From: Vulcanimicrobiota bacterium
GTDB lineage: Bacteria > Vulcanimicrobiota > Xenobia > Xenobiales > JADMJV01
Direction: 5' to 3'
Assembly: GCA_050250895.1 (NCBI GenBank)
Contig: JBFWNU010000001.1
Coordinates: 2,692,891 to 2,756,890 of the forward strand
Length of the DNA stretch: 64,000 nucleotides
In this document: piece by piece, positions 1,370 through 64,000 of the stretch
How positions within the stretch are numbered: position 1 is the first letter of the stretch
Layout of the letters: each line of letters begins with the position of its first letter
The notes under the pieces: generated by a model
Databases searched by the model: none
Told to the model about the DNA's origin: nothing
The model's input: the letters and a program-made list of their open reading frames with translations, nothing else
Made by a program: the position numbers and the translations under genes

Positions 1370-2823
1370 AGGTCCGTGCGGCGGTCGCGCAGGTGGCGCA
1401 CGCTGCCCATTTCGCGGGCCTGGGTCAACGCCTCGAGGTCGAGATCGCTGATGACCACCGTCTCGCTGTCGAACTCGGCTGCCGCGGCCACACCGTCTTT
1501 GGGAAAGGCAAAGTCGCAGGGGGTGCAGACCATGGCTTCGGCATAGTTGCCCACGTTGCCGGCCAGCACGGTATAGACCTCGTTCTCGACCGCTCTCGCC
1601 TGACCCGAGTAGCGAATCCGAAGATAGGCCTTGCGTTCATCGGTACGGAACGGCACGAACAGGATCTCCGCTCCGGCCAGGGTGAGCAGCCTGGCAAGTT
1701 CGGGAAATTCGACATCGTAGCCGACCAGCATGGCCACGCGTCCGTAACCGGTCTCGAAGACCCGCAGTTCACGCCCGGGCGTCAGGCCGTCATGCTGACG
1801 TTCGCGGGGGGTGAGATGCAGTTTCTCTTGGAGGCAGACTTCGCCGCCGGGCGTGAACAGGTGAGCCACGTTATAGAGGCGGCCTTCTTCGGCCACCGGA
1901 AAGCTGCCCGCCAGGATAAACAAGCCCGAGGCCAACGCGGACTGACGAAACAGCTTGAGGTAGTCAGGTCGGGATTCGGCCAGTTTGCCGACGGTGGCCG
2001 GCTCGGAAAGGCCCATCCCGAACAGTTCTGGAAAGACCAGAAAGTGGCAATGATAGCGTTCGGCCGTGGCCACGAAGAAGTTGACCTGCCCAACCACATA
2101 CTGCCATGAGGCCACCGCACCGACCTGAAACTGGGCCACACACACCCTGACCTTGCGCACCGGACGCGTGAGAGGAGCGGCGGCGATGCGTCTGCGTTCG
2201 GGCCGGAAGAACGGGTTCTCGTATTCGAGAAAGGTGGCGTAGTCGAGACTCTGCTCGTCGTGGAGATAGCCCATTTGCACGCCTTTGACCTGATAGCCGG
2301 CCTTGAGGTGGGCATTGAGCGACGAGTCCGAGAGCCGACCCGCCAGCACTTCGGCCACATACTCTTCAGGACTCAGACGTCCCGCCTGGCTCTTGTAGCC
2401 GGGGATGCGACCACCTGCGACCATGCGGCGAAGATTCAGGCGGCGCACCAGTTGCTTGCGAGCCTCGTAGAGTTTGCCAGCCACCCCTTCGCCCCGATGT
2501 CCCGGATGGACCGCGATGTCGGCGCCGTAGAGAGTATCCCCGCTGGGGTCGTGGGTGGTGAACGTTCCCCCGCCCGTGATCTCCTGGTAGGAGTACCAGG
2601 GCGAGTCGGCATCCAGGCTGACGATGAGCGAGGTTGCATAGCCCACCACCTCGTCGCCGCGAGTGGCTACCAGGATTCCGTCGGGAAAGGTCTCGAACTG
2701 CATCCGCAAGAGACGCTCGTCACACAGCGCGCTGGCCGGAAGCCCGGCATAGGCGGCTGCCTGGCAGGCGTAGATCGAGGGAATATCCCGCTCGTTGGCG
2801 CGCCGTACTCTGAGTCTGCTCAC
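1321..2823 (-). CDS. Bifunctional GNAT acetyltransferase / carbon-nitrogen hydrolase (nitrilase family)
   Basis: N-terminal GNAT (DIAVHPGHRGEGVAGKLYEARK, GGRIPGY). C-terminal CN-hydrolase (FPEL, QEKLHLTP, GYDVEFPE, RAVENE, RDRRTDLY). The usual catalytic Cys position (ICYD) reads VGYD. Confidence 0.85.
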   Translation of the reverse strand: MSRLRVRRANERDIPSIYACQAAAYAGLPASALCDERLLRMQFETFPDGILVATRGDEVVGYATSLIVSLDADSPWYSYQEITGGGTFTTHDPSGDTLYGADIAVHPGHRGEGVAGKLYEARKQLVRRLNLRRMVAGGRIPGYKSQAGRLSPEEYVAEVLAGRLSDSSLNAHLKAGYQVKGVQMGYLHDEQSLDYATFLEYENPFFRPERRRIAAAPLTRPVRKVRVCVAQFQVGAVASWQYVVGQVNFFVATAERYHCHFLVFPELFGMGLSEPATVGKLAESRPDYLKLFRQSALASGLFILAGSFPVAEEGRLYNVAHLFTPGGEVCLQEKLHLTPRERQHDGLTPGRELRVFETGYGRVAMLVGYDVEFPELARLLTLAGAEILFVPFRTDERKAYLRIRYSGQARAVENEVYTVLAGNVGNYAEAMVCTPCDFAFPKDGVAAAAEFDSETVVISDLDLEALTQAREMGSVRHLRDRRTDLYTVNSLASVVLVRTS

Positions 2824-2900
2824 TCCGTTGGCTTCGGCTCACGGGCACACCTCGCCCTGCAATTCAGGGCTCTTTGAGGGTCGCGGGCTAGGCTCGAGGC

Positions 2901-4691
2901 ATGCTAATAGGACCCGTGCGCCCAAATACCCGCGTTTCCCACCCTGCTACCCCGGCCAGGGCCGAGGCGAGCTCAGCCCCCCAGGATCAAGTGTCGGTGA
3001 GCCATTCCGGGGCCCGGCCCTGGGACGAGCTACGCAAGGCCGGCCTGATGAGTTCCTTGTCGGGCCTGAGCGGCAATCTGGGTGGAGCCCTCTCGGCAGC
3101 CACCCGCCAGGGTCTGCTTGAGACGTTCGAGCGTCTGCAGGACCAGGGCGTGACTTTCCAATACCGGCGCAAGTTTTATATTCCATTTCTGCAAGACAAG
3201 TTCAAGCAGGTGACCCCCGAGGCTGCCGTGGGATGGCTCGAAAAGCAAAAGGGTGAGGGCTATATCGAGCGTCTCCAGGTGACCGAGAAGGGTGGCCACA
3301 GCTGGCCCGTGCGTCGCCTCGACGAACTCGAGGCGCTCGACGTGGTGGGCGGCGGCACGGCCCCTTCGGCCGAGCAAAAGACCCGGCTCGAGGTGCTCGA
3401 TAGCCTCACCTCCCAGGGCTTTAGCTATTCTCCCGGTGGCTACTACTATGACGAAAAAGTTCCCAAGCTCGATCGGGCTCAGTTGCTGGCGCGGTTGAGT
3501 CGCACCAACCCGGAGTTCACGGTCAAGAAGGAGCAACTCAGCTTTGGGGTCGGTTCCAGCGAGACGTTGCTGGCTATCGAATACTACCACGGCGACCACA
3601 GTGATCGGGGACTGGCCAATCCCCAACGAGCCAAGCTGCTGGCCGAACTCGACCAGCGCGGTCTGCGCGTCGGCGACCGCGACGATAATCTGGTGGCCAA
3701 CTACCTCAGTGACACCGCCGTGATGTGGGTGCGTCGCCCCGACGGGCCCCCCATCGCGGTCGACCTCAACAAGAACCCCAATCCCGACAAGGTGGTGGGC
3801 GAACTCGATACCTATGCCAAGCGCTACCAACGGTTTTTGCAGCCTGCCCTGGAACGTTGCGGGATCAGCAGCGAGTATGTCCCGCAAGAGGTGAAGGCCG
3901 AAGACGGGCCCCACTCCCCCGAGTTTCGCATGGCCCTCTACAGCGAGTTGCTGGGGGCCACGGTCGACTCGGGCGTGCGCGGCTATGACGCCAACAAACC
4001 CGCTAGCGACCTCTATCGCACTTTGATCTCGAGCAGCGAATCGACCTACGACGTGGCCAAGATGGCCAGGCTGATCCTGCCGGCCCTGCAACAGAAGGGC
4101 CCCAACGCGGCTCGGTCGGTGCTCAACCGCACCACCGAAAAGATGGCCAACATGGCCGCCCCCGGCGGCGATCGCAAGACCCTCAGCGACATCTTCTTTG
4201 AACTGCACGACTCGGTGCCCACCATCAGCGCCTGCATGGAGGGGATCGACCTGGTTCGCATCTCGGTGGACGATACCAGCCTCGAGGACCGCATCGCTCT
4301 CTTCAGAGCCATCGGCAACCGGGAATCGGCCGACACCCTGGGCGACGCCGCCGCCCACTACCGGGCGGTGCTGGTGCACAAAGCTCCCAAAGAGAGCCTG
4401 CTCAAAGCCGGTCAGCGCTTCCAGAAGCTTTTAGTGGGCCTGTCCATCGGCCGCAACCAGGGCCGAGCCGTCGAGATCTTCGCCGCCCTGCAGAAGGGCA
4501 TAGCCTCGGGTGACTACACTTCGGACAAGGCCGATCAAGTGCTCAACGAGTTCCTCGGCCATCTGACCGTCGCCAAGACCTTGGAGGAGGCCCTGGCCAC
4601 GGCTCAATTCGCCGGTCACCTCGACGCCGAGCTGACCCTGGACGAGGACACCCTGGTGGTGGGCGGCTTCGAAGTCCCCCGGGCTGACTAG
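2901..4691 (+). CDS. Hypothetical 596-aa protein
   Basis: Long ORF with GAGG RBS. Low-complexity N-terminus ending in PQDQVSVS; helical C-terminal half ending DEDTLVVGGFEVPRAD. No family recognised. Confidence 0.8.
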   Translation: MLIGPVRPNTRVSHPATPARAEASSAPQDQVSVSHSGARPWDELRKAGLMSSLSGLSGNLGGALSAATRQGLLETFERLQDQGVTFQYRRKFYIPFLQDKFKQVTPEAAVGWLEKQKGEGYIERLQVTEKGGHSWPVRRLDELEALDVVGGGTAPSAEQKTRLEVLDSLTSQGFSYSPGGYYYDEKVPKLDRAQLLARLSRTNPEFTVKKEQLSFGVGSSETLLAIEYYHGDHSDRGLANPQRAKLLAELDQRGLRVGDRDDNLVANYLSDTAVMWVRRPDGPPIAVDLNKNPNPDKVVGELDTYAKRYQRFLQPALERCGISSEYVPQEVKAEDGPHSPEFRMALYSELLGATVDSGVRGYDANKPASDLYRTLISSSESTYDVAKMARLILPALQQKGPNAARSVLNRTTEKMANMAAPGGDRKTLSDIFFELHDSVPTISACMEGIDLVRISVDDTSLEDRIALFRAIGNRESADTLGDAAAHYRAVLVHKAPKESLLKAGQRFQKLLVGLSIGRNQGRAVEIFAALQKGIASGDYTSDKADQVLNEFLGHLTVAKTLEEALATAQFAGHLDAELTLDEDTLVVGGFEVPRAD

Positions 4692-58648: not shown

Positions 58649-59472
58649 GAATCCTGGCCCTGCTGCTGCTACTGAGTTGTCAGGCCCTGGCCCAGGTGGG
58701 CAGCCTGGTATCGCTATCGGGCACCGAGGTCAAACTCACCTCGCTGCATTATCGCTTCGACCTGACCGAGCCGAAGGCTCGCCTCAGCCTCGAGGCCACT
58801 CTGGTCAATACCACGGATCGAGCGCTTGACGCCCACTACTTGCTGTTGGCTACCCAGGCGCGTCCTCCGGTCGAACTCGACGGCCGACCCTTACCCGTCG
58901 AGTCGACCTCGCGGGGCGAGTTTTACGGGCATGCCTTTCTGGTGCCCCTGTCACCCCACGAAGAGGCCCGACTGACCTCTCGCGTGACCGTGGTCGGCGA
59001 GCCGGCCTTTGATGCCGGACGGCGTGGCTACCGCTACCATCTGGTGGTGCCGGGAGATGGGACCACCGAGTTCGAGTTCGAGCTGCCCGAGTCTCTTTGG
59101 CTCGGCTCGGCCCTATCGCTCGAGTCCACCGAACCCGGCCGTTATCGGGCTCGGGCCCTGACCGGTCAGGTGGCTTTCACCGTCGGCCCCAAGGCCGACC
59201 TCGGATTCGCCCTGGCGTTGGGCGGGCCCATGGTGGTTTTCTTGCTGGCCAGTCTTATCGCTCTTCGGTGTCGACCGGCCGTGGGCCTGACTCTGGCCAT
59301 GCTGCTCGCCGGCGCGACCTATCAGGCCCTCAGTAAATCGGTCTGGCTGATCTGGTCGACCGAGCCGGCCGTCGAGGACCTGCTGAGGTGGTCGCTGGTG
59401 CTGGCGGTCACGGGGGCCGCCGTGGTCACCACCGCTGCCGGAGGAGTGCGTGAGCCTGCTGAGCGAGAGTGA
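58645..59472 (+). CDS. Exported/membrane hypothetical protein
   Basis: TTG 58645 overlaps the mscS stop; signal peptide LRILALLLLLSCQALA; three C-terminal TM helices. Confidence 0.6.
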   Translation: MRILALLLLLSCQALAQVGSLVSLSGTEVKLTSLHYRFDLTEPKARLSLEATLVNTTDRALDAHYLLLATQARPPVELDGRPLPVESTSRGEFYGHAFLVPLSPHEEARLTSRVTVVGEPAFDAGRRGYRYHLVVPGDGTTEFEFELPESLWLGSALSLESTEPGRYRARALTGQVAFTVGPKADLGFALALGGPMVVFLLASLIALRCRPAVGLTLAMLLAGATYQALSKSVWLIWSTEPAVEDLLRWSLVLAVTGAAVVTTAAGGVREPAERE

Positions 59473-60148
59473 ACTCGAGCGCCGGGACGTGGTGGCCAAT
59501 TGCTCGATGAATCGGGAACGCGGTCTGGCCAGCTATGTCCGAGAACTCCGCTTCGACCCGCTCGGACAACTGGCCGCCGGGGATTGCTGGCTTGACCTTG
59601 GCTGCGGTCAGGGACGGGCTTTGCGCGAGGCAGCCGAGCGTCGCCCGGATCTCCGACTCTTCGGAGTCGACCTGGTATTGCCCGAGCCTTCGCCTGACGT
59701 TGCGTTCGTGGCGGCGGCGGCCCGCCATTATCGACCCCGCCAACGCTTCGGCCTGATCACGATGGTCCACTCACTCCACTATGTGGGCGACAAACTGGGT
59801 TTGCTCGAGCGGGCGTCCCAATGGCTCGAGGAGCGGGGCCGACTGGTGGCCCACCTCGACCTGGCCAACCTGCGCTGGCCTGACGGTCGCCGGGCCGGTC
59901 CCTGGCTGGTCGGCCAGTTGCGTCAGGGTGGTTGGCTCTATCAGGCGCGCCTTCGCCTGCTCTCGCGGGTGGGACCGGCCCCGTTCGGCCCGGAGGTTGA
60001 ATTCCTTGGGGCTGACCCCTCCGCGGGCCCGAACTTCACCGGCCAGGCTGCCGTCCACTCGGTCTACCGTCGCGCACGAACTTTCGACGAAAAACATGTA
60101 ACAAAAGAAATTTCTGGCCGACGTCAAGACCCGAATGGGCAACTTTAG
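59450..60148 (+). CDS. Class I SAM-dependent methyltransferase
   Basis: WLDLGCGQG, FGVDL, FGLITMVHSLHYVGDKL. Confidence 0.85.
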   Translation: MSLLSESELERRDVVANCSMNRERGLASYVRELRFDPLGQLAAGDCWLDLGCGQGRALREAAERRPDLRLFGVDLVLPEPSPDVAFVAAAARHYRPRQRFGLITMVHSLHYVGDKLGLLERASQWLEERGRLVAHLDLANLRWPDGRRAGPWLVGQLRQGGWLYQARLRLLSRVGPAPFGPEVEFLGADPSAGPNFTGQAAVHSVYRRARTFDEKHVTKEISGRRQDPNGQL

Positions 60149-60196
60149 CTCGATCTGGACGGCCTTGGATGCGATTTTGGGAACAGGTTTTCCCGG

Positions 60197-60224
60197 TTGA
60201 CATCGTCTTCTGGATGGATATAAT
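60197..60224 (+). promoter_or_regulatory. Consensus sigma70 promoter
   Basis: TTGACA (60197-60202), 16-nt spacer, TATAAT (60219-60224); predicted start about 60231. Confidence 0.85.
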
Positions 60225-60230
60225 CAAAAT

Positions 60231-61308
60231 CGTTCCGACCACGGAGCCGCCCCGAATCAGCGTGAGTTCGGTGGGGTCTTACACCCCCAGACGGAATGTC
60301 TAAAGGGTAAGCGTTGGGCGAAGACGACATCGCACCCCCGGCGCCCCGGCCGGTCTCCAGGGCAAGGCTCGACTCGGGCCCTAGAACCCTCGCGAGGTTC
60401 GTCCGGCTCCCGAGAATCGAGAGGTCTGGTGCTGGTAGGTATGGCGGCCAGACAGCGGAACACTCAATTGCCGCGGCGCTCCACGATGCCGAAAGAGAGT
60501 GACTTGAGAACCGGTGGTCCGGTTTACGGTGGCAAACCCACCGGCGGCGCTGCTCGAATGCCGTGACAGAGGCGTCTGTCGAACGCGAGCAGGGTAGCTC
60601 TCCACCATAGAGAGCCTGAAGCCTCGATAAGGATTTCGGGGCGAGGCCCGAGACCCAGGCCGGAACCGTGAGGGTAAAGGCTGCCGCTAGTCGGCAGTGC
60701 CGGAGCAGGTCGAAAACGGGAGTCTGGTGCAGGTGAGGTGGCGGCCAGACACGGAGTCGCTCAGGCCGTAAAGAGCGAGGGTTGCGCTCAAACCATAGAA
60801 GCGCCCAGAGCCGACTGGTTAAAACGGGAGTCGTCGCAACGACTTAAGCCGACGGGTCGTGGAGTGCCCGAGGGTTGGAAATCTCGCGCCTGACGTGAGA
60901 ACGTCGAATAGCGAGCGCGGAACTGCTCGAGTGCCGTGGGGGGTGACCGCCAGAAAAGCGAGCAGGGGTAGCATGCATACCTGAGATATGCGCAGCGCTT
61001 CGTCTGAAGACATTCGAAGCGAGGCCCGACGCTCTTGCCGGAACCGTGAGGGGAAAGGCCGACTGGATTCGTCCAGTTCGGTGCCGGTCAAGGCGGACCA
61101 CGGGAGCCTGGTGCAGGAGAGGCGGCGGCCAGGCAGCGGAGCTATCGCTTGCCGCGACGACCACTAATCGTCGAAAGAGATAGACAGCAGATGTCTCGAC
61201 TGCCTAACAATGAGACGACCCTCCGCTTCGGCGAAGGGACCCCGACGCCTGAGTGGTGGCGGTCGGGAACCGAGAGGCGCTCCCTGGCAGGGCGCCTCTT
61301 TCCTTTTT
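60231..61308 (+). ncRNA. Putative large structured non-coding RNA (~1.07 kb) with three tandem homologous modules; family not recognised
   Basis: Own promoter and terminator, no credible CDS, internal triplication with compensatory base changes in stems and a pseudoknot, 5'/3' end complementarity. Confidence 0.75.
61272..61308 (+). terminator. Intrinsic terminator
   Basis: GAGAGGCGC-TCCCTGGCAGG-GCGCCTCTT followed by TCCTTTTT. Confidence 0.8.
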
Positions 61309-61410
61309 CCGGGGGGCGCGTGGGAGTGGTGGAAATCGCCAGGTGCAGTAGGCGTGGATGCTTAGCTGCGGGCGCTTTGGAACTTTGGGGTCGGGGCTGA
61401 CGAGACAGAG

Positions 61411-61686
61411 ATGGGACTAGCGTTGCGGTTTGCCGGACGGCCGCTGCTTTTTCGGAAGCTGGTGGGCTTGGACGGAGGATGCACGCTGGACGGGATCGCG
61501 GATTTGCAGAACGCGATTCGCGAGGAGTTGGGGTTCGGAGAGCCTGTCGTGGTCCCGGACCGTGGGGCTACCTTCTTTGCCACCGTGGGGATGCCGTTTA
61601 CGCTACATCCGGAGGCCCAGTTCCACGAGGTTCAGCTGCGAAAGCTGAAGGATATTCGGTCAAAGTTCCCGCTGGTTGAGCGGTGA
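61411..61686 (+). CDS. Small hypothetical protein
   Basis: 91-aa ATG ORF after the terminator; no family recognised. Confidence 0.45.
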   Translation: MGLALRFAGRPLLFRKLVGLDGGCTLDGIADLQNAIREELGFGEPVVVPDRGATFFATVGMPFTLHPEAQFHEVQLRKLKDIRSKFPLVER

Positions 61687-61757
61687 CGCAATCTGTGCCG
61701 ACTTGGCTTGGTCGGACCCTTCCACCTCCGCGTTAAAACTCCAGCAAGCACCCCCGG

Positions 61758-62591
61758 TCAGGCGGTGACGAAGTCGACCTCGATCGAACGGGGGATGATG
61801 CCGGCCGAGTGGCCTCGCGAGAGCAGTTCACGCACGGCGGCGCGGCCGGCCTGACCGAAGTCGAGAGTCGTGTCGTTGACGTACATCTCGACGAAGCGGT
61901 CGCAGGTGTCCTTGTCGAGCCCTCGGCCCCACTGCAGAGCGTAGTCCAGGGCCTCGTCGCGGTGGTCGAGGCCGTAGCGGATGGAGCGGTCGAGGATGTC
62001 GGCGACCTGGGCGATGCGTTCGGGGCCCAGCGAGCGGCGCACGATGGTCACTCCCAGGGGCAGAGGCAGCCCGGTCTGCTCTTGCCACCATTGGCCCAGG
62101 TCGACCAGTAGCTCGAGGCCTTCGGCGGCATAGGTCAACTGGCCCTCGTGGATGACCAAACCGGCACTGGCCTCACCCGAGCGGACCGTCTCGAGGATTT
62201 GGTCGAAGGGAACCACTTTGTAGGGGAAGTCTCCGGCGTAGAGGCGGGCTACCAGGAAGGCCGTGGTCAGCTCGCCGGGCACGGCTATCGGGCCGGCAAA
62301 GGCCTCTTCCGCCTCGACCCCGGGGCGGGTCACGAAGATCGGGCCGTAACCCTGGCCCAGGCTGGCCCCCGCCGCCAGCAAGGCATAGTCGTCGGCCAGG
62401 TGGGCATAGGCATGCAGAGAGACGGCCGTGACGTCGAGCTTTTGCTCGAAGGCCCACTCGTTGAGGGTCTGGATGTCCTCCATGACGTGCTCGAATTCGA
62501 ACTCGCCCATGTCGATGCGCCGCTGCGCGGTGGCGCAGAACATGAAGGCGTCGTCAGGGTCGGGGCTGTGACCTACGCGAATCAGGGTCAC
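61758..62591 (-). CDS. mqnD: 1,4-dihydroxy-6-naphthoate synthase (futalosine menaquinone pathway)
   Basis: VGHSPDPDDAFMF, DIQTLN, GYGP, IAVPGELTTA, GLVIHEGQLTY, TGLPLPLG, MYVN. Confidence 0.93.
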   Translation of the reverse strand: MTLIRVGHSPDPDDAFMFCATAQRRIDMGEFEFEHVMEDIQTLNEWAFEQKLDVTAVSLHAYAHLADDYALLAAGASLGQGYGPIFVTRPGVEAEEAFAGPIAVPGELTTAFLVARLYAGDFPYKVVPFDQILETVRSGEASAGLVIHEGQLTYAAEGLELLVDLGQWWQEQTGLPLPLGVTIVRRSLGPERIAQVADILDRSIRYGLDHRDEALDYALQWGRGLDKDTCDRFVEMYVNDTTLDFGQAGRAAVRELLSRGHSAGIIPRSIEVDFVTA

Positions 62592-64000
62592 GTGGGCTGG
62601 TCCTTGGTCAGGCCCGTCTTCTCGGGGCCCGACCGAGCCTTCTCGTCGCGCACGATGTTGAGGTTCATGCGCGGTTTGGTGAGATAGGTGTTTTGCTTCT
62701 CTTGCACCGACAGTTCAAAGTTGGAGGTGAACACCAGCGAGTCGGTGGGGCAAGCCTCGGTGCACAAGCCGCAATAGCAGCAACGGGCCAGATCGATGGA
62801 GTAGATCTCGGGGTATTCCCAGCCCTCGTCGTTTTCAGGCGAGGCCAGGTGAATGCAGCTGTCGGGACAGGCGTCGACGCAAACCCCGCAACCCACGCAC
62901 ATTTCGGCCGCGCAGCCGTAACAGCGCTTGCCCTCGCGGCGGGCCATGTCGAGCGAGAAGCCCAGGTCAAGCTCGTCGAAGGTCTGAATGCGCACCTCCC
63001 CCGGAATCTTCGGCATCGGCACTTGATAGTTCATCCGCCGGAAGGGCTTCTGCTTGGGCTCTTTGGACCAGGGTCGCGGGTCGACGAAAGCGCTCTCGGG
63101 CGGGCTCTCGACCTCACCCAATCCGGCGCGCCGCGAGACCACTCCCGAACTCAGGGCCGGAGCCGTGCCGTCGACGTAGGGAGTGACGTGCAGCTCAGCG
63201 TGGCCCGACTTCTCATAGCCGTAGAGAAAGGGAAAGCTGTCGGGGCAGCAGTCGTATTTTCTGGCGATGCCGATGCACACCGCATCGGCCATGCCGATGG
63301 CTTCGATGATGGTCGAAACCTTGGCCACGTCGCCGCAAGCCCACACGCCCTCGCGAGTGGTCTTGCCCTGTTCGTCAACCCGGATGGTGCCGTTGCGGTT
63401 GACCTTGATGTCGTCAGGCAGCCAGGGTATGTCGACCATCCGGCCCAGGGCCGTAATGATCATTCCGCACTCCAGAAGATATTCCGAGCCGGCGATGGGG
63501 CGGGGACTGCGCCGGCCCGAGCGGTCTTTCTCGCCCAGGCGATTCTTGATCACTTCCAGGCCGACCAGCTGGCCGTCTTGGATAATGATACGGTGGGGCG
63601 ACGTCAGCCACTCGAGGTGGATGCCCTCCTCCTCGCCATCTTCAATCTCTTCTTCTTCAGAAGGCATCTCGCGGCGGGTGCGCCGATAGATCATGACCAC
63701 CTCGGCCCCCATCCGGCGACAGGTGCGAGCGCAGTCAAAGCCGGTGTTGCCGCCCCCAACCACCACGACCTTTTTGGGCACTTCGGTGAGGCGGCCGCGA
63801 ATCTGCTCTTCGAGAAAGTCCTCGCCGTAATAGACGTAGGGCTTCTCTTCCGAGGCCAATCCCAGATGGTACGGCTTCCAGGCCCCGGCTGCGATGATGA
63901 CCTCGTGATGCCGCTTCTCGAGCTCTTCGAGGGTGACGTCGTTGCCCACTTCTACCGACAGGTGCAGGGTGATACCGTCGAGCTTGTGGATCCGTTCCAT
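62588..64000 (-). CDS. FAD/NAD(P)H-dependent oxidoreductase (GltD-like) fused to a C-terminal 2x[4Fe-4S] NuoI-like domain; 5' end outside the window
   Basis: VVVVGGGNTGFDCART, YRRTRREMP, CGDV, EGKRCYGC; CVGCGVCVDACP and CCYCGLCTEACP...FEL. Confidence 0.88.
   Translation of the reverse strand: MERIHKLDGITLHLSVEVGNDVTLEELEKRHHEVIIAAGAWKPYHLGLASEEKPYVYYGEDFLEEQIRGRLTEVPKKVVVVGGGNTGFDCARTCRRMGAEVVMIYRRTRREMPSEEEEIEDGEEEGIHLEWLTSPHRIIIQDGQLVGLEVIKNRLGEKDRSGRRSPRPIAGSEYLLECGMIITALGRMVDIPWLPDDIKVNRNGTIRVDEQGKTTREGVWACGDVAKVSTIIEAIGMADAVCIGIARKYDCCPDSFPFLYGYEKSGHAELHVTPYVDGTAPALSSGVVSRRAGLGEVESPPESAFVDPRPWSKEPKQKPFRRMNYQVPMPKIPGEVRIQTFDELDLGFSLDMARREGKRCYGCAAEMCVGCGVCVDACPDSCIHLASPENDEGWEYPEIYSIDLARCCYCGLCTEACPTDSLVFTSNFELSVQEKQNTYLTKPRMNLNIVRDEKARSGPEKTGLTKDQPT

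Follow-up and report, generated by a model that had tools for sequence, protein, structure and literature searches.

We put at roughly 0.6 the probability that positions 60231-61310 (+ strand) of the window, a 64,000-nt stretch of DNA from a Vulcanimicrobiota bacterium (GenBank assembly GCA_050250895.1, contig JBFWNU010000001.1, positions 2,692,891 to 2,756,890), are a non-coding RNA gene that stands alone, is strongly transcribed and belongs to a set of six paralogues in its genome, and that its product is a multivalent structured platform acting in trans. The RNA family is a variable-number tandem array whose copy number is free to drift between lineages. From the observed gene, modules, helices, presence in RNA libraries and distribution, we infer action in trans because the flanking genes differ at all six loci, and multivalency because the RNA repeats one surface, varies in copy number, has several paralogues per genome and is preceded by near-consensus promoters.

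Transcription of the gene is predicted to begin at a sigma-70 promoter and to end at an intrinsic terminator, as follows.

60197-60224, + strand: sigma-70 promoter with the -35 hexamer at 60197-60202, the -10 hexamer at 60219-60224 and a 16-nt spacer; 12 of 12 consensus positions match
60231-61310, + strand: predicted primary transcript of ~1.08 kb, its ends taken from the promoter and terminator
61272-61310, + strand: intrinsic terminator found by a terminator scan, an 11-bp stem followed by a T-rich run

The promoter at 60197-60224 was the only promoter-like site found in 59900-61800, where shuffled sequence gave a mean of 0.3. A similar pattern lies upstream of 28 of the 30 genome-derived loci that reach the 5′ end (overlapping duplicate loci counted), and a hairpin with a T-run closes every paralogue and relative whose 3′ end was read. 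No credible open reading frame was found in 60100-61400. Judged by its sequence, the RNA region is non-coding, because its indels shift the frame (0/13, 1/11 and 0/16 indel runs were multiples of three in the three closest paralogue pairs), codon periodicity is absent from the paralogue comparison (substitutions by position modulo 3 were 40/47/48), and no open frame is conserved among the paralogues, the longest frames differing in strand and place.

The modules were located with two covariance models. R1 was built from the 3′ end of module 3, and R2 from the 56 module cores of alignment A8, a diverse set taken from many RNAs, among which module 3 was the only sequence from the window. A search of the whole 9.5-Mb genome with R2 returned 18 matches, every one of them within the six paralogous multi-module RNA loci, and exactly three of these fell in the window RNA, each of whose modules R1 also matched.

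60284-60503, + strand: module 1, the most diverged copy (R2 match 60305-60452, 30.1 bits, E 1.2e-4; R1 match 60424-60501, 46.7 bits)
60424-60429/60448-60453, + strand: closing hairpin H of module 1, inside the R1 match
60591-60749, + strand: core of module 2 (R2 match, 92.6 bits, E 4e-21; R1 match 60714-60797)
60965-61134, + strand: core of module 3 (R2 match 60965-61133, 154.2 bits, E 2.3e-37; R1 match 61098-61203)

This result confirms the original prediction, made from the sequence before any search, that the RNA is a tandem triplication of one module. The motifs that it listed were exact in all 18 motif/coordinate pairs, and each of the four long strings that it described as common to copies 2 and 3 was found at two places and no more, with matching offsets. 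The copies were also linked by blastn on the whole genome, which aligned module 2 with module 3 at 68% over 221 nt (E 3.5e-20) and module 1 with module 3 over an 80-nt 3′ part only (E 4.5e-5). The module core is predicted to measure ~160-230 nt, with three full copies in the window RNA. In module 2, the core comprises hairpin a, hairpin b, an enclosing stem (60647-50/60717-20), a GNRA hairpin and the closing hairpin H (60722-27/60745-50). The 5′ part of the module-3 core holds small pseudoknot 1 (60967-69/60979-81), hairpin a, small pseudoknot 2 (60993-95/61004-06) and hairpin b (60998-61002/61015-19), and its 3′ part holds the enclosing stem (61025-28/61101-04), the GNRA hairpin (~61044-51) and the closing hairpin H (61106-11/61129-34). 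By eye, the GNRA arm of module 1 is degenerate in the window copy and intact in paralogues P3-P6.

In the lineage of the window RNA, large pseudoknots flank the cores and follow a single design, in which the loop of a 4-bp stem pairs with a strand beyond an inserted hairpin and an A-rich linker. They are placed in the window RNA as follows.

60455-60501, + strand: pseudoknot b1, with stem 1 at 60455-58/60471-74, an inserted hairpin at ~60475-60490 and stem 2 at 60461-65/60497-60501
60544-60592, + strand: pseudoknot a2, with stem 1 at 60544-47/60561-64, an inserted hairpin at 60565-70/60575-80 and stem 2 at 60550-56/60586-92
60751-60778, + strand: pseudoknot b2, with stem 1 at 60751-54/60766-69 and stem 2 at 60757-62/60773-78, lacking the inserted hairpin in the window copy
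60917-60965, + strand: pseudoknot a3, with stem 1 at 60917-20/60934-37 and stem 2 at 60923-29/60959-65
61136-61183, + strand: pseudoknot b3, with stem 1 at 61136-39/61152-55, an inserted hairpin at 61156-60/61168-72 and stem 2 at 61142-46/61179-83

Base pairs were counted on MAFFT alignments made without fitting to a structure. For whole modules, the consensus structures from RNAalifold were poor or sparse owing to pseudoknots and differences in length, and the helices were defined by hand and then counted. Across the tested alignments, 86-95% of cells were paired, compared to 20-51% when the partner strands were slid out of register, and the covariation score was reached by 0 of 500 shuffles in each. 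The original prediction held that each copy contains a covarying pseudoknot between a loop and a downstream strand, and this was borne out for all three 3′ knots. Stem 2 of b1 changed on both sides at 5/5 pairs and was 91% paired (A4, 67 homologous regions). Stem 2 of b3 changed on both sides at 6/6 pairs and was 88% paired (A2, 47 sequences), a count that includes five rows without the knot and two rows, the window's among them, that are one column off; over the module-3 closing hairpin and b3 together, 94.7% of cells were paired, as against 25-45% with slid partners, and 0/500 shuffles reached the score. Alignment A5, which covers b2, was too ragged for column counts, and b2 was assessed without an alignment: a region's own loop and own 3′ strand gave at least five contiguous pairs in 42 of 60 regions, compared to 14.6% with swapped strands. 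The corresponding alignment-free parsers for b1, a2 and a3 were in the wrong register, and the b2 result alone was used. For the 5′ knots, stem 2 of a2 changed on both sides at 5/6 pairs and was 92.7% paired, and its inserted hairpin did so at 4/4 pairs (A6, 65 homologous regions), while stem 2 of a3 was 90.3% paired with both-side changes at 4/6 pairs, each in 1 to 8 sequences only, and its inserted hairpin changed at 4/4 (A7, 58 regions). The pairing at the start of the module, earlier described as a simple hairpin, is stem 2 of a further pseudoknot, which is built like the 3′ knot.

The module cores gave a similar picture. Both-side changes were present at 22 of 35 pairs, and 87.9% of cells were paired, compared to 29-49% with slid partners (A8, 56 cores, as for all core counts that follow). 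Small pseudoknot 1 is formed by a GG(U) after the large knot pairing with ACC in the loop of hairpin a; a homologous element after pseudoknot b1 showed both-side changes at 3/4 pairs with 88.6% of cells paired. Small pseudoknot 2 is formed by the three bases 5′ of hairpin b pairing with the first bases of its loop, with both-side changes at 3/3 pairs and 95.8% of cells paired, and hairpin b itself changed at 5/5 pairs. The enclosing stem, also predicted to covary, was 89.7% paired, one of its pairs appearing as GC in 23 cores, AU in 14 and GU in 5. It surrounds a junction that carries the GNRA-capped arm, and the junction stem changed on both sides at 3/5 pairs. The GNRA tetraloop capping this arm is in register in 274 of 396 modules and is mostly GUGA or GCGA. 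Closing hairpin H was 100% paired with a nearly invariant internal loop, and it contains an invariant U-A pair beside a C-G or U-A pair. With covariation found in every helix tested and the region apparently non-coding, the earlier proposal that selection acts on RNA structure is supported.

Two further stretches of the RNA, together with the module remnants they seem to contain, were delimited.

60779-60916, + strand: spacer that looks like a shortened, degenerate module, opening by eye with a GG(U) and a hairpin with an ACC loop as in the core
61186-61271, + strand: 3′ tail with a weak fourth H-like hairpin and, by eye, a possible small pseudoknot (61187-90/61200-03 and 61193-97/61213-17)

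No stretch is better conserved among the paralogues than the spacer, in which a 12-mer of module 2 recurs (an exact 12-nt direct repeat at 60713 and 60821). The 3′ tail gave a weak fourth R1 match (61232-61348, 18.9 bits, E 1e-3), and the equivalent place in paralogue P2 scored 43.4 bits with R1 and 59.7 bits with R2. Both the spacer and the tail look like degenerate module remnants.

The six paralogues are collinear over their full length, 1083-1161 nt long and 59-97% identical, with the window copy 68% identical to P2 and ~61% identical to P3-P6. Two of them, P4 and P5 (C2:138085-139245 and C2:143084-144242), share 97% identity, lie 5 kb from each other on one strand with three unrelated ORFs between them, one encoding a WD40 protein, and look like a recent segmental duplication. 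The layout of promoter, modules and terminator is common to the window RNA, the five other paralogues and relatives, and full-length relatives measure 1.0-1.5 kb with the same promoter and terminator arrangement. The R1/R2 tandem-module family was defined by at least two tandem R2 matches on the same strand, preceded by a sigma-70-type promoter and followed by an intrinsic terminator, with module helices backed by compensatory change, and the window RNA shows all of these features, the last over the 56 cores. The flanking genes differ at all six loci, and the downstream genes are often on the opposite strand. Among the products of the flanking genes are a methyltransferase, a menaquinone-synthesis protein, an esterase, a GGDEF protein, an S1/P1 nuclease, a WD40 protein and a pyroglutamyl peptidase, and no neighbour is common to the six loci; because the neighbours are different each time, they give no hint of a cis-regulatory role. 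In the window, the upstream neighbour (59450-60148 stretch) encodes a SAM-dependent methyltransferase, and downstream on the opposite strand (61758-64000) lie genes for a menaquinone-biosynthesis protein of the VitK2_biosynth family and a pyridine-nucleotide-disulphide oxidoreductase with 4Fe-4S domains.

Module number varies widely among relatives, in which the matches cluster in tandem. An iterated module profile identified 396 modules in the collected loci, with 1 to 15 per locus, a count of 1 being a three-module RNA in which module 3 alone is recognised. The RNA of genus g2, in the same family, is ~1.4 kb long and has six plainer tandem modules, with a simple hairpin before each in place of the large knots. 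Five tandem modules are present in family f2 and three in family f5, other arrays hold 10-12 modules of two alternating types, and a 3956-nt contig carries 15 tandem modules in an array that runs off the contig end, giving at least 15. In these arrays of 10-15 modules, which occupy contigs of 2.5-4 kb, no coding sequence interrupts the run of modules. In four of them (L099, L143, L111 and L181), module lengths of ~230 and ~265 nt alternate, and the amplified unit looks like a two-module super-repeat. The original prediction had suggested a trivalent scaffold or sponge and had proposed a covariance-model search for versions with one, two or three modules. Three homologous modules are indeed present in the window RNA, and the search did find multi-module forms; three is not a special number, and "variable-valency array" is a better fit than "trivalent" because relatives carry 5-6, 10-11 and at least 15 modules. 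Among the genomes and contigs examined, for which not every match in every genome was tabulated, no relative with a single module came to light.

The distribution counts are from samples, in which absence means that the RNA was not found in the genomes searched. R2 was positive in 21 of 44 genomes of the class, comprising 14/15 in family f1, 5/5 in f2, 1/1 in f5, 0/19 in f3 and 0/3 in f4, and in a phylum sample it was positive in 18 of 151 genomes, with 0/114 outside the class. A blastn search with a six-module query was concordant (14/401). The RNA family occurs in three families of one class, the records of which are mostly titled Vulcanimicrobiota or Candidatus Xenobia; the taxonomy of the relatives rests on the submitters' record titles, which are partly discordant. 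Within the GTDB family of the window, the NCBI titles comprise four of Vulcanimicrobiota/Candidatus Xenobia, two of "uncultured Burkholderiales", one of "Selenomonadaceae" and two of "bacterium", and the discordant titles among these loci (L043, L048, L053, L068, L069, L073 and L076) are probably mislabelled bins. A pattern scan of species genomes returned 36 loci, 23 of which hold the RNA by nhmmer; the other 13, from Acidobacteriota, Nannocystis and others, were rejected as chance matches. The 4227 covariance models of Rfam 15, among which we presume that those of the large bacterial RNAs ROOL, GOLLD and OLE are included, gave no match at the gathering score in the whole 64-kb window. At E ≤10, they gave only three chance-level eukaryotic matches on 60000-61500 (E ≥1.1) and one chance-level match (E 0.45) on three multi-module relatives. 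No description of this RNA was found in the full-text literature, a search whose reach ended short of subscription journals and supplementary files, and the tandem-module RNA is apparently an undescribed family.

The window RNA is present in RNA libraries at high word depth. Metatranscriptomic RNA-seq runs contain 15-41% of its sampled words, and contigs from three metatranscriptome runs in two studies cover 60258-61278, 60286-61203 and 60361-61288, with word depths of ~2500-3900 in two runs and 358 in the third. A 1038-nt contig spanning 60240-61276 comes from a run with a guessed DNA label ("DNA?"). No run contig was found over 59500-60239 or 61350-62000, an absence that counts as no evidence; the only run with a DNA label, a guessed one, also stops at the ends of the RNA, so that not even a weak hint is given. 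Among the matches listed, 102 of 120 metagenome-collection contigs that fit the module pattern contain the RNA. Its 5′ end is reached by 51 contigs, and 37 of these begin no more than 5 nt away from that end and have lengths of 1113-1694 nt. These transcript-sized contigs look as assembled transcripts would. The high word depth hints at an abundant cellular role, one that protein-based annotation would not see. The 5′ end of the RNA has the following structure.

60233-60277, + strand: 5′ leader, read from sequence as a short hairpin (60234-60237/60242-60245) followed by a longer one (60250-60256/60268-60277)

Both arms of the first leader hairpin change together in relatives, by eye and uncounted. 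Assembled contigs from both the runs and the metagenome collection mostly begin 10-15 nt 3′ of the promoter-predicted start (60240-60258 in the window), which in relatives lies inside this covarying hairpin. The shifted starts could be due to loss of 5′ ends in library preparation or to real 5′ trimming.

In the platform reading, each module would show the same conserved surface to a partner, which might be a protein, another RNA or a small ligand. Valency would be set by the number of modules, and output would scale with valency as the RNA binds or organises many copies of one partner. The modules of the three-module lineage have since gained position-specific features, so that the whole chain probably works as one folded unit. 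The variable module number, the strong promoters and the several paralogues per genome are all compatible with the earlier idea of a scaffold or sponge. Several observations weigh against the platform reading. It is drawn from the architecture of the RNA, and no partner, phenotype or conserved neighbour points to a function. The modules of the three-module lineage are not equivalent, with more than one strong R1 match in only 5 of 83 sources and only 30 bits for module 1 with R2, and a simple sponge of equal sites suits this lineage poorly. As for the transcript, assembled contigs cannot show strand, ends or level, and DNA can occur in RNA libraries. As for the structure, the sequences used for covariation are paralogues and close relatives, for which shuffle controls overstate significance and the slid-partner controls are fairer. 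The GG(U)/ACC pairing of small pseudoknot 1 never varies in the cores, three of the four enclosing-stem pairs of module 3 are invariant, and the same CCC strand could instead pair with a 5′ GGG, in pairs that likewise never vary.

Comparison with known systems gave partial likenesses only. ROOL, GOLLD and OLE are reported to form RNA-only homo-oligomers (PMC12286853). Like the window RNA, they are large, highly structured, pseudoknot-rich, free-standing bacterial RNAs of unknown biochemical function, but they are single protomers, whereas the window RNA belongs to a family with a variable number of homologous modules per chain, from a different phylum, with no conserved neighbourhood and no Rfam 15 match. 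Tandem glycine-type riboswitches, in which two homologous aptamers of ~100 nt and an expression platform make up a cis-acting 5′ leader, also have homologous structured domains head to tail in one bacterial RNA. In contrast, the window RNA is terminated and stands alone, and its family has 3 to at least 15 modules beside unrelated downstream genes. The CsrB/RsmZ sponges, and NORAD in animals, are trans-acting RNAs whose function scales with repeated binding units, and they resemble the window RNA in often having several paralogues per genome, strong expression and a repeat number that varies between species. The Csr/Rsm unit is a GGA-loop hairpin of ~20 nt, while the unit here is a multi-pseudoknot domain of ~160-230 nt and the gene context implies no binding protein. 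tmRNA, which has several pseudoknots in series, is likewise a bacterial RNA with a chain of H-type pseudoknots; the window RNA has no Rfam tmRNA match, no tRNA-like domain or tag reading frame was seen in it, and the tandem-module RNA has six copies per genome and a length of 1.1 kb. In none of these systems is a bacterial RNA that stands alone built from large, knotted, homologous domains in variable number.

The same architecture was weighed under other explanations. The original prediction suggested a covalent version of an RNA that otherwise forms homo-oligomers, an idea for which the ROOL, GOLLD and OLE assemblies are the precedent, and here the modules would dock on one another, for example by a GNRA loop entering a helix of the neighbouring module, to give an RNA-only stack, ring or filament. 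We regard this as a possible but rather unlikely alternative. A GNRA-capped arm belongs to every module, in the register and loop types given above, and by the receptor rule for GUGA loops, known from in vitro selection work, the invariant U-A pair beside C-G or U-A in the closing hairpin would suit a GUGA loop. The position-specific divergence of modules in the three-module lineage suggests an integrated fold, and large ornate bacterial RNAs are known to form RNA-only multimers (PMC12286853). A module number of 3 to at least 15, however, speaks against a closed assembly of fixed symmetry, although an open stack would be possible, and tetraloop type showed no clear association with the helix pairs of the same module. 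A relative with one module, for which oligomerisation would be required, was not seen, and with 18/18 genome matches lying in multi-module genes, the suggestion of a covalent oligomer is neither supported nor refuted. It is possible, with the same low probability, that the family is a new class of giant RNA, an array of 3 to at least 15 autonomously folding multi-pseudoknot domains docked via their GNRA arms, which would be the covalent counterpart of the ROOL and GOLLD homo-oligomers with a length tuned by repeat gain and loss.

It is unlikely that the transcript is a precursor from which a host RNase, or self-cleavage by the modules, releases active single-module RNAs in the manner of tRNA or CRISPR RNA arrays. 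Variable copy number is typical of arrays of equivalent units, and the simple conserved hairpin between modules in the 6- to 15-module forms might mark a cleavage site, but long multi-module contigs occur in the metagenome collection and in the RNA-library assemblies (contigs cannot show RNA ends), and the modules of the window lineage are distinct and each kept in position across genera, which would be unexpected for interchangeable units. A break between RNA contigs at 60690-60719 is a 30-nt overlap in a repeated stretch, indicating an assembly effect. A cis-regulatory leader or tandem riboswitch array for a downstream gene is very improbable, even though tandem homologous aptamers occur in some riboswitches, such as those for glycine, and the modules are compact and knotted like aptamers. 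The RNA is ended by its own strong terminator rather than forming a 5′ leader with a read-through expression platform, the genes downstream differ at the six loci and are often on the other strand, and the arrays of 10-15 modules extend through 2.5-4 kb without intervening coding sequence, a context that largely refutes such a role. Least credible of all is a repeated DNA element, such as a mobile element remnant or satellite, or a degraded coding region, with no RNA gene present. Multiple copies in the genome and tandem repeats would be expected of such an element, but compensatory changes keep pairs on one strand, a consensus promoter and a terminator accompany each copy, the RNA is present in RNA libraries and its indels shift the frame. 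No transposase or repeat termini were found, apart from one weak transposase-like match near P4/P5 that falls below the Pfam cut-off.

If the platform reading holds, this would be, to our knowledge, the first bacterial trans-acting RNA composed of many tandem large, knotted, homologous domains. Repeat-unit architecture is known in animal long non-coding RNAs and in protein repeat arrays, and we know of no bacterial RNA that has it. It would add a large, well-supported structured RNA family with at least five distinct pseudoknot types from a barely studied phylum, its natural length variants of 3 to at least 15 modules allow study of how RNA domains fold and pack in series, and the covalent encoding of oligomeric RNA assemblies becomes a testable question.

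Some further features lie around the RNA genes. Just 3′ of the terminator in the window is a 91-aa ORF (61411-61686, + strand) with no Pfam match, and terminator-like hairpins are present near its start (61425-61444) and within it (61549-61571). In one relative (L012/L141/L080, on contig C57 of its genome), the full copy of the RNA has a second, partial one directly upstream of it, in head-to-head orientation on the opposite strand, with nhmmer matches to profile columns 2-165 and 269-762. A conserved stretch of ~25 nt lies ~60-100 nt upstream of the -35 hexamer in P3-P6 (C1 near 114750 and 1926450; C2 near 139350 and 144350), with no obvious match in the window copy or P2. In another relative (L009), this stretch reads like a DnaA box (TGTGGATAA), and it may be a site for a shared regulator.

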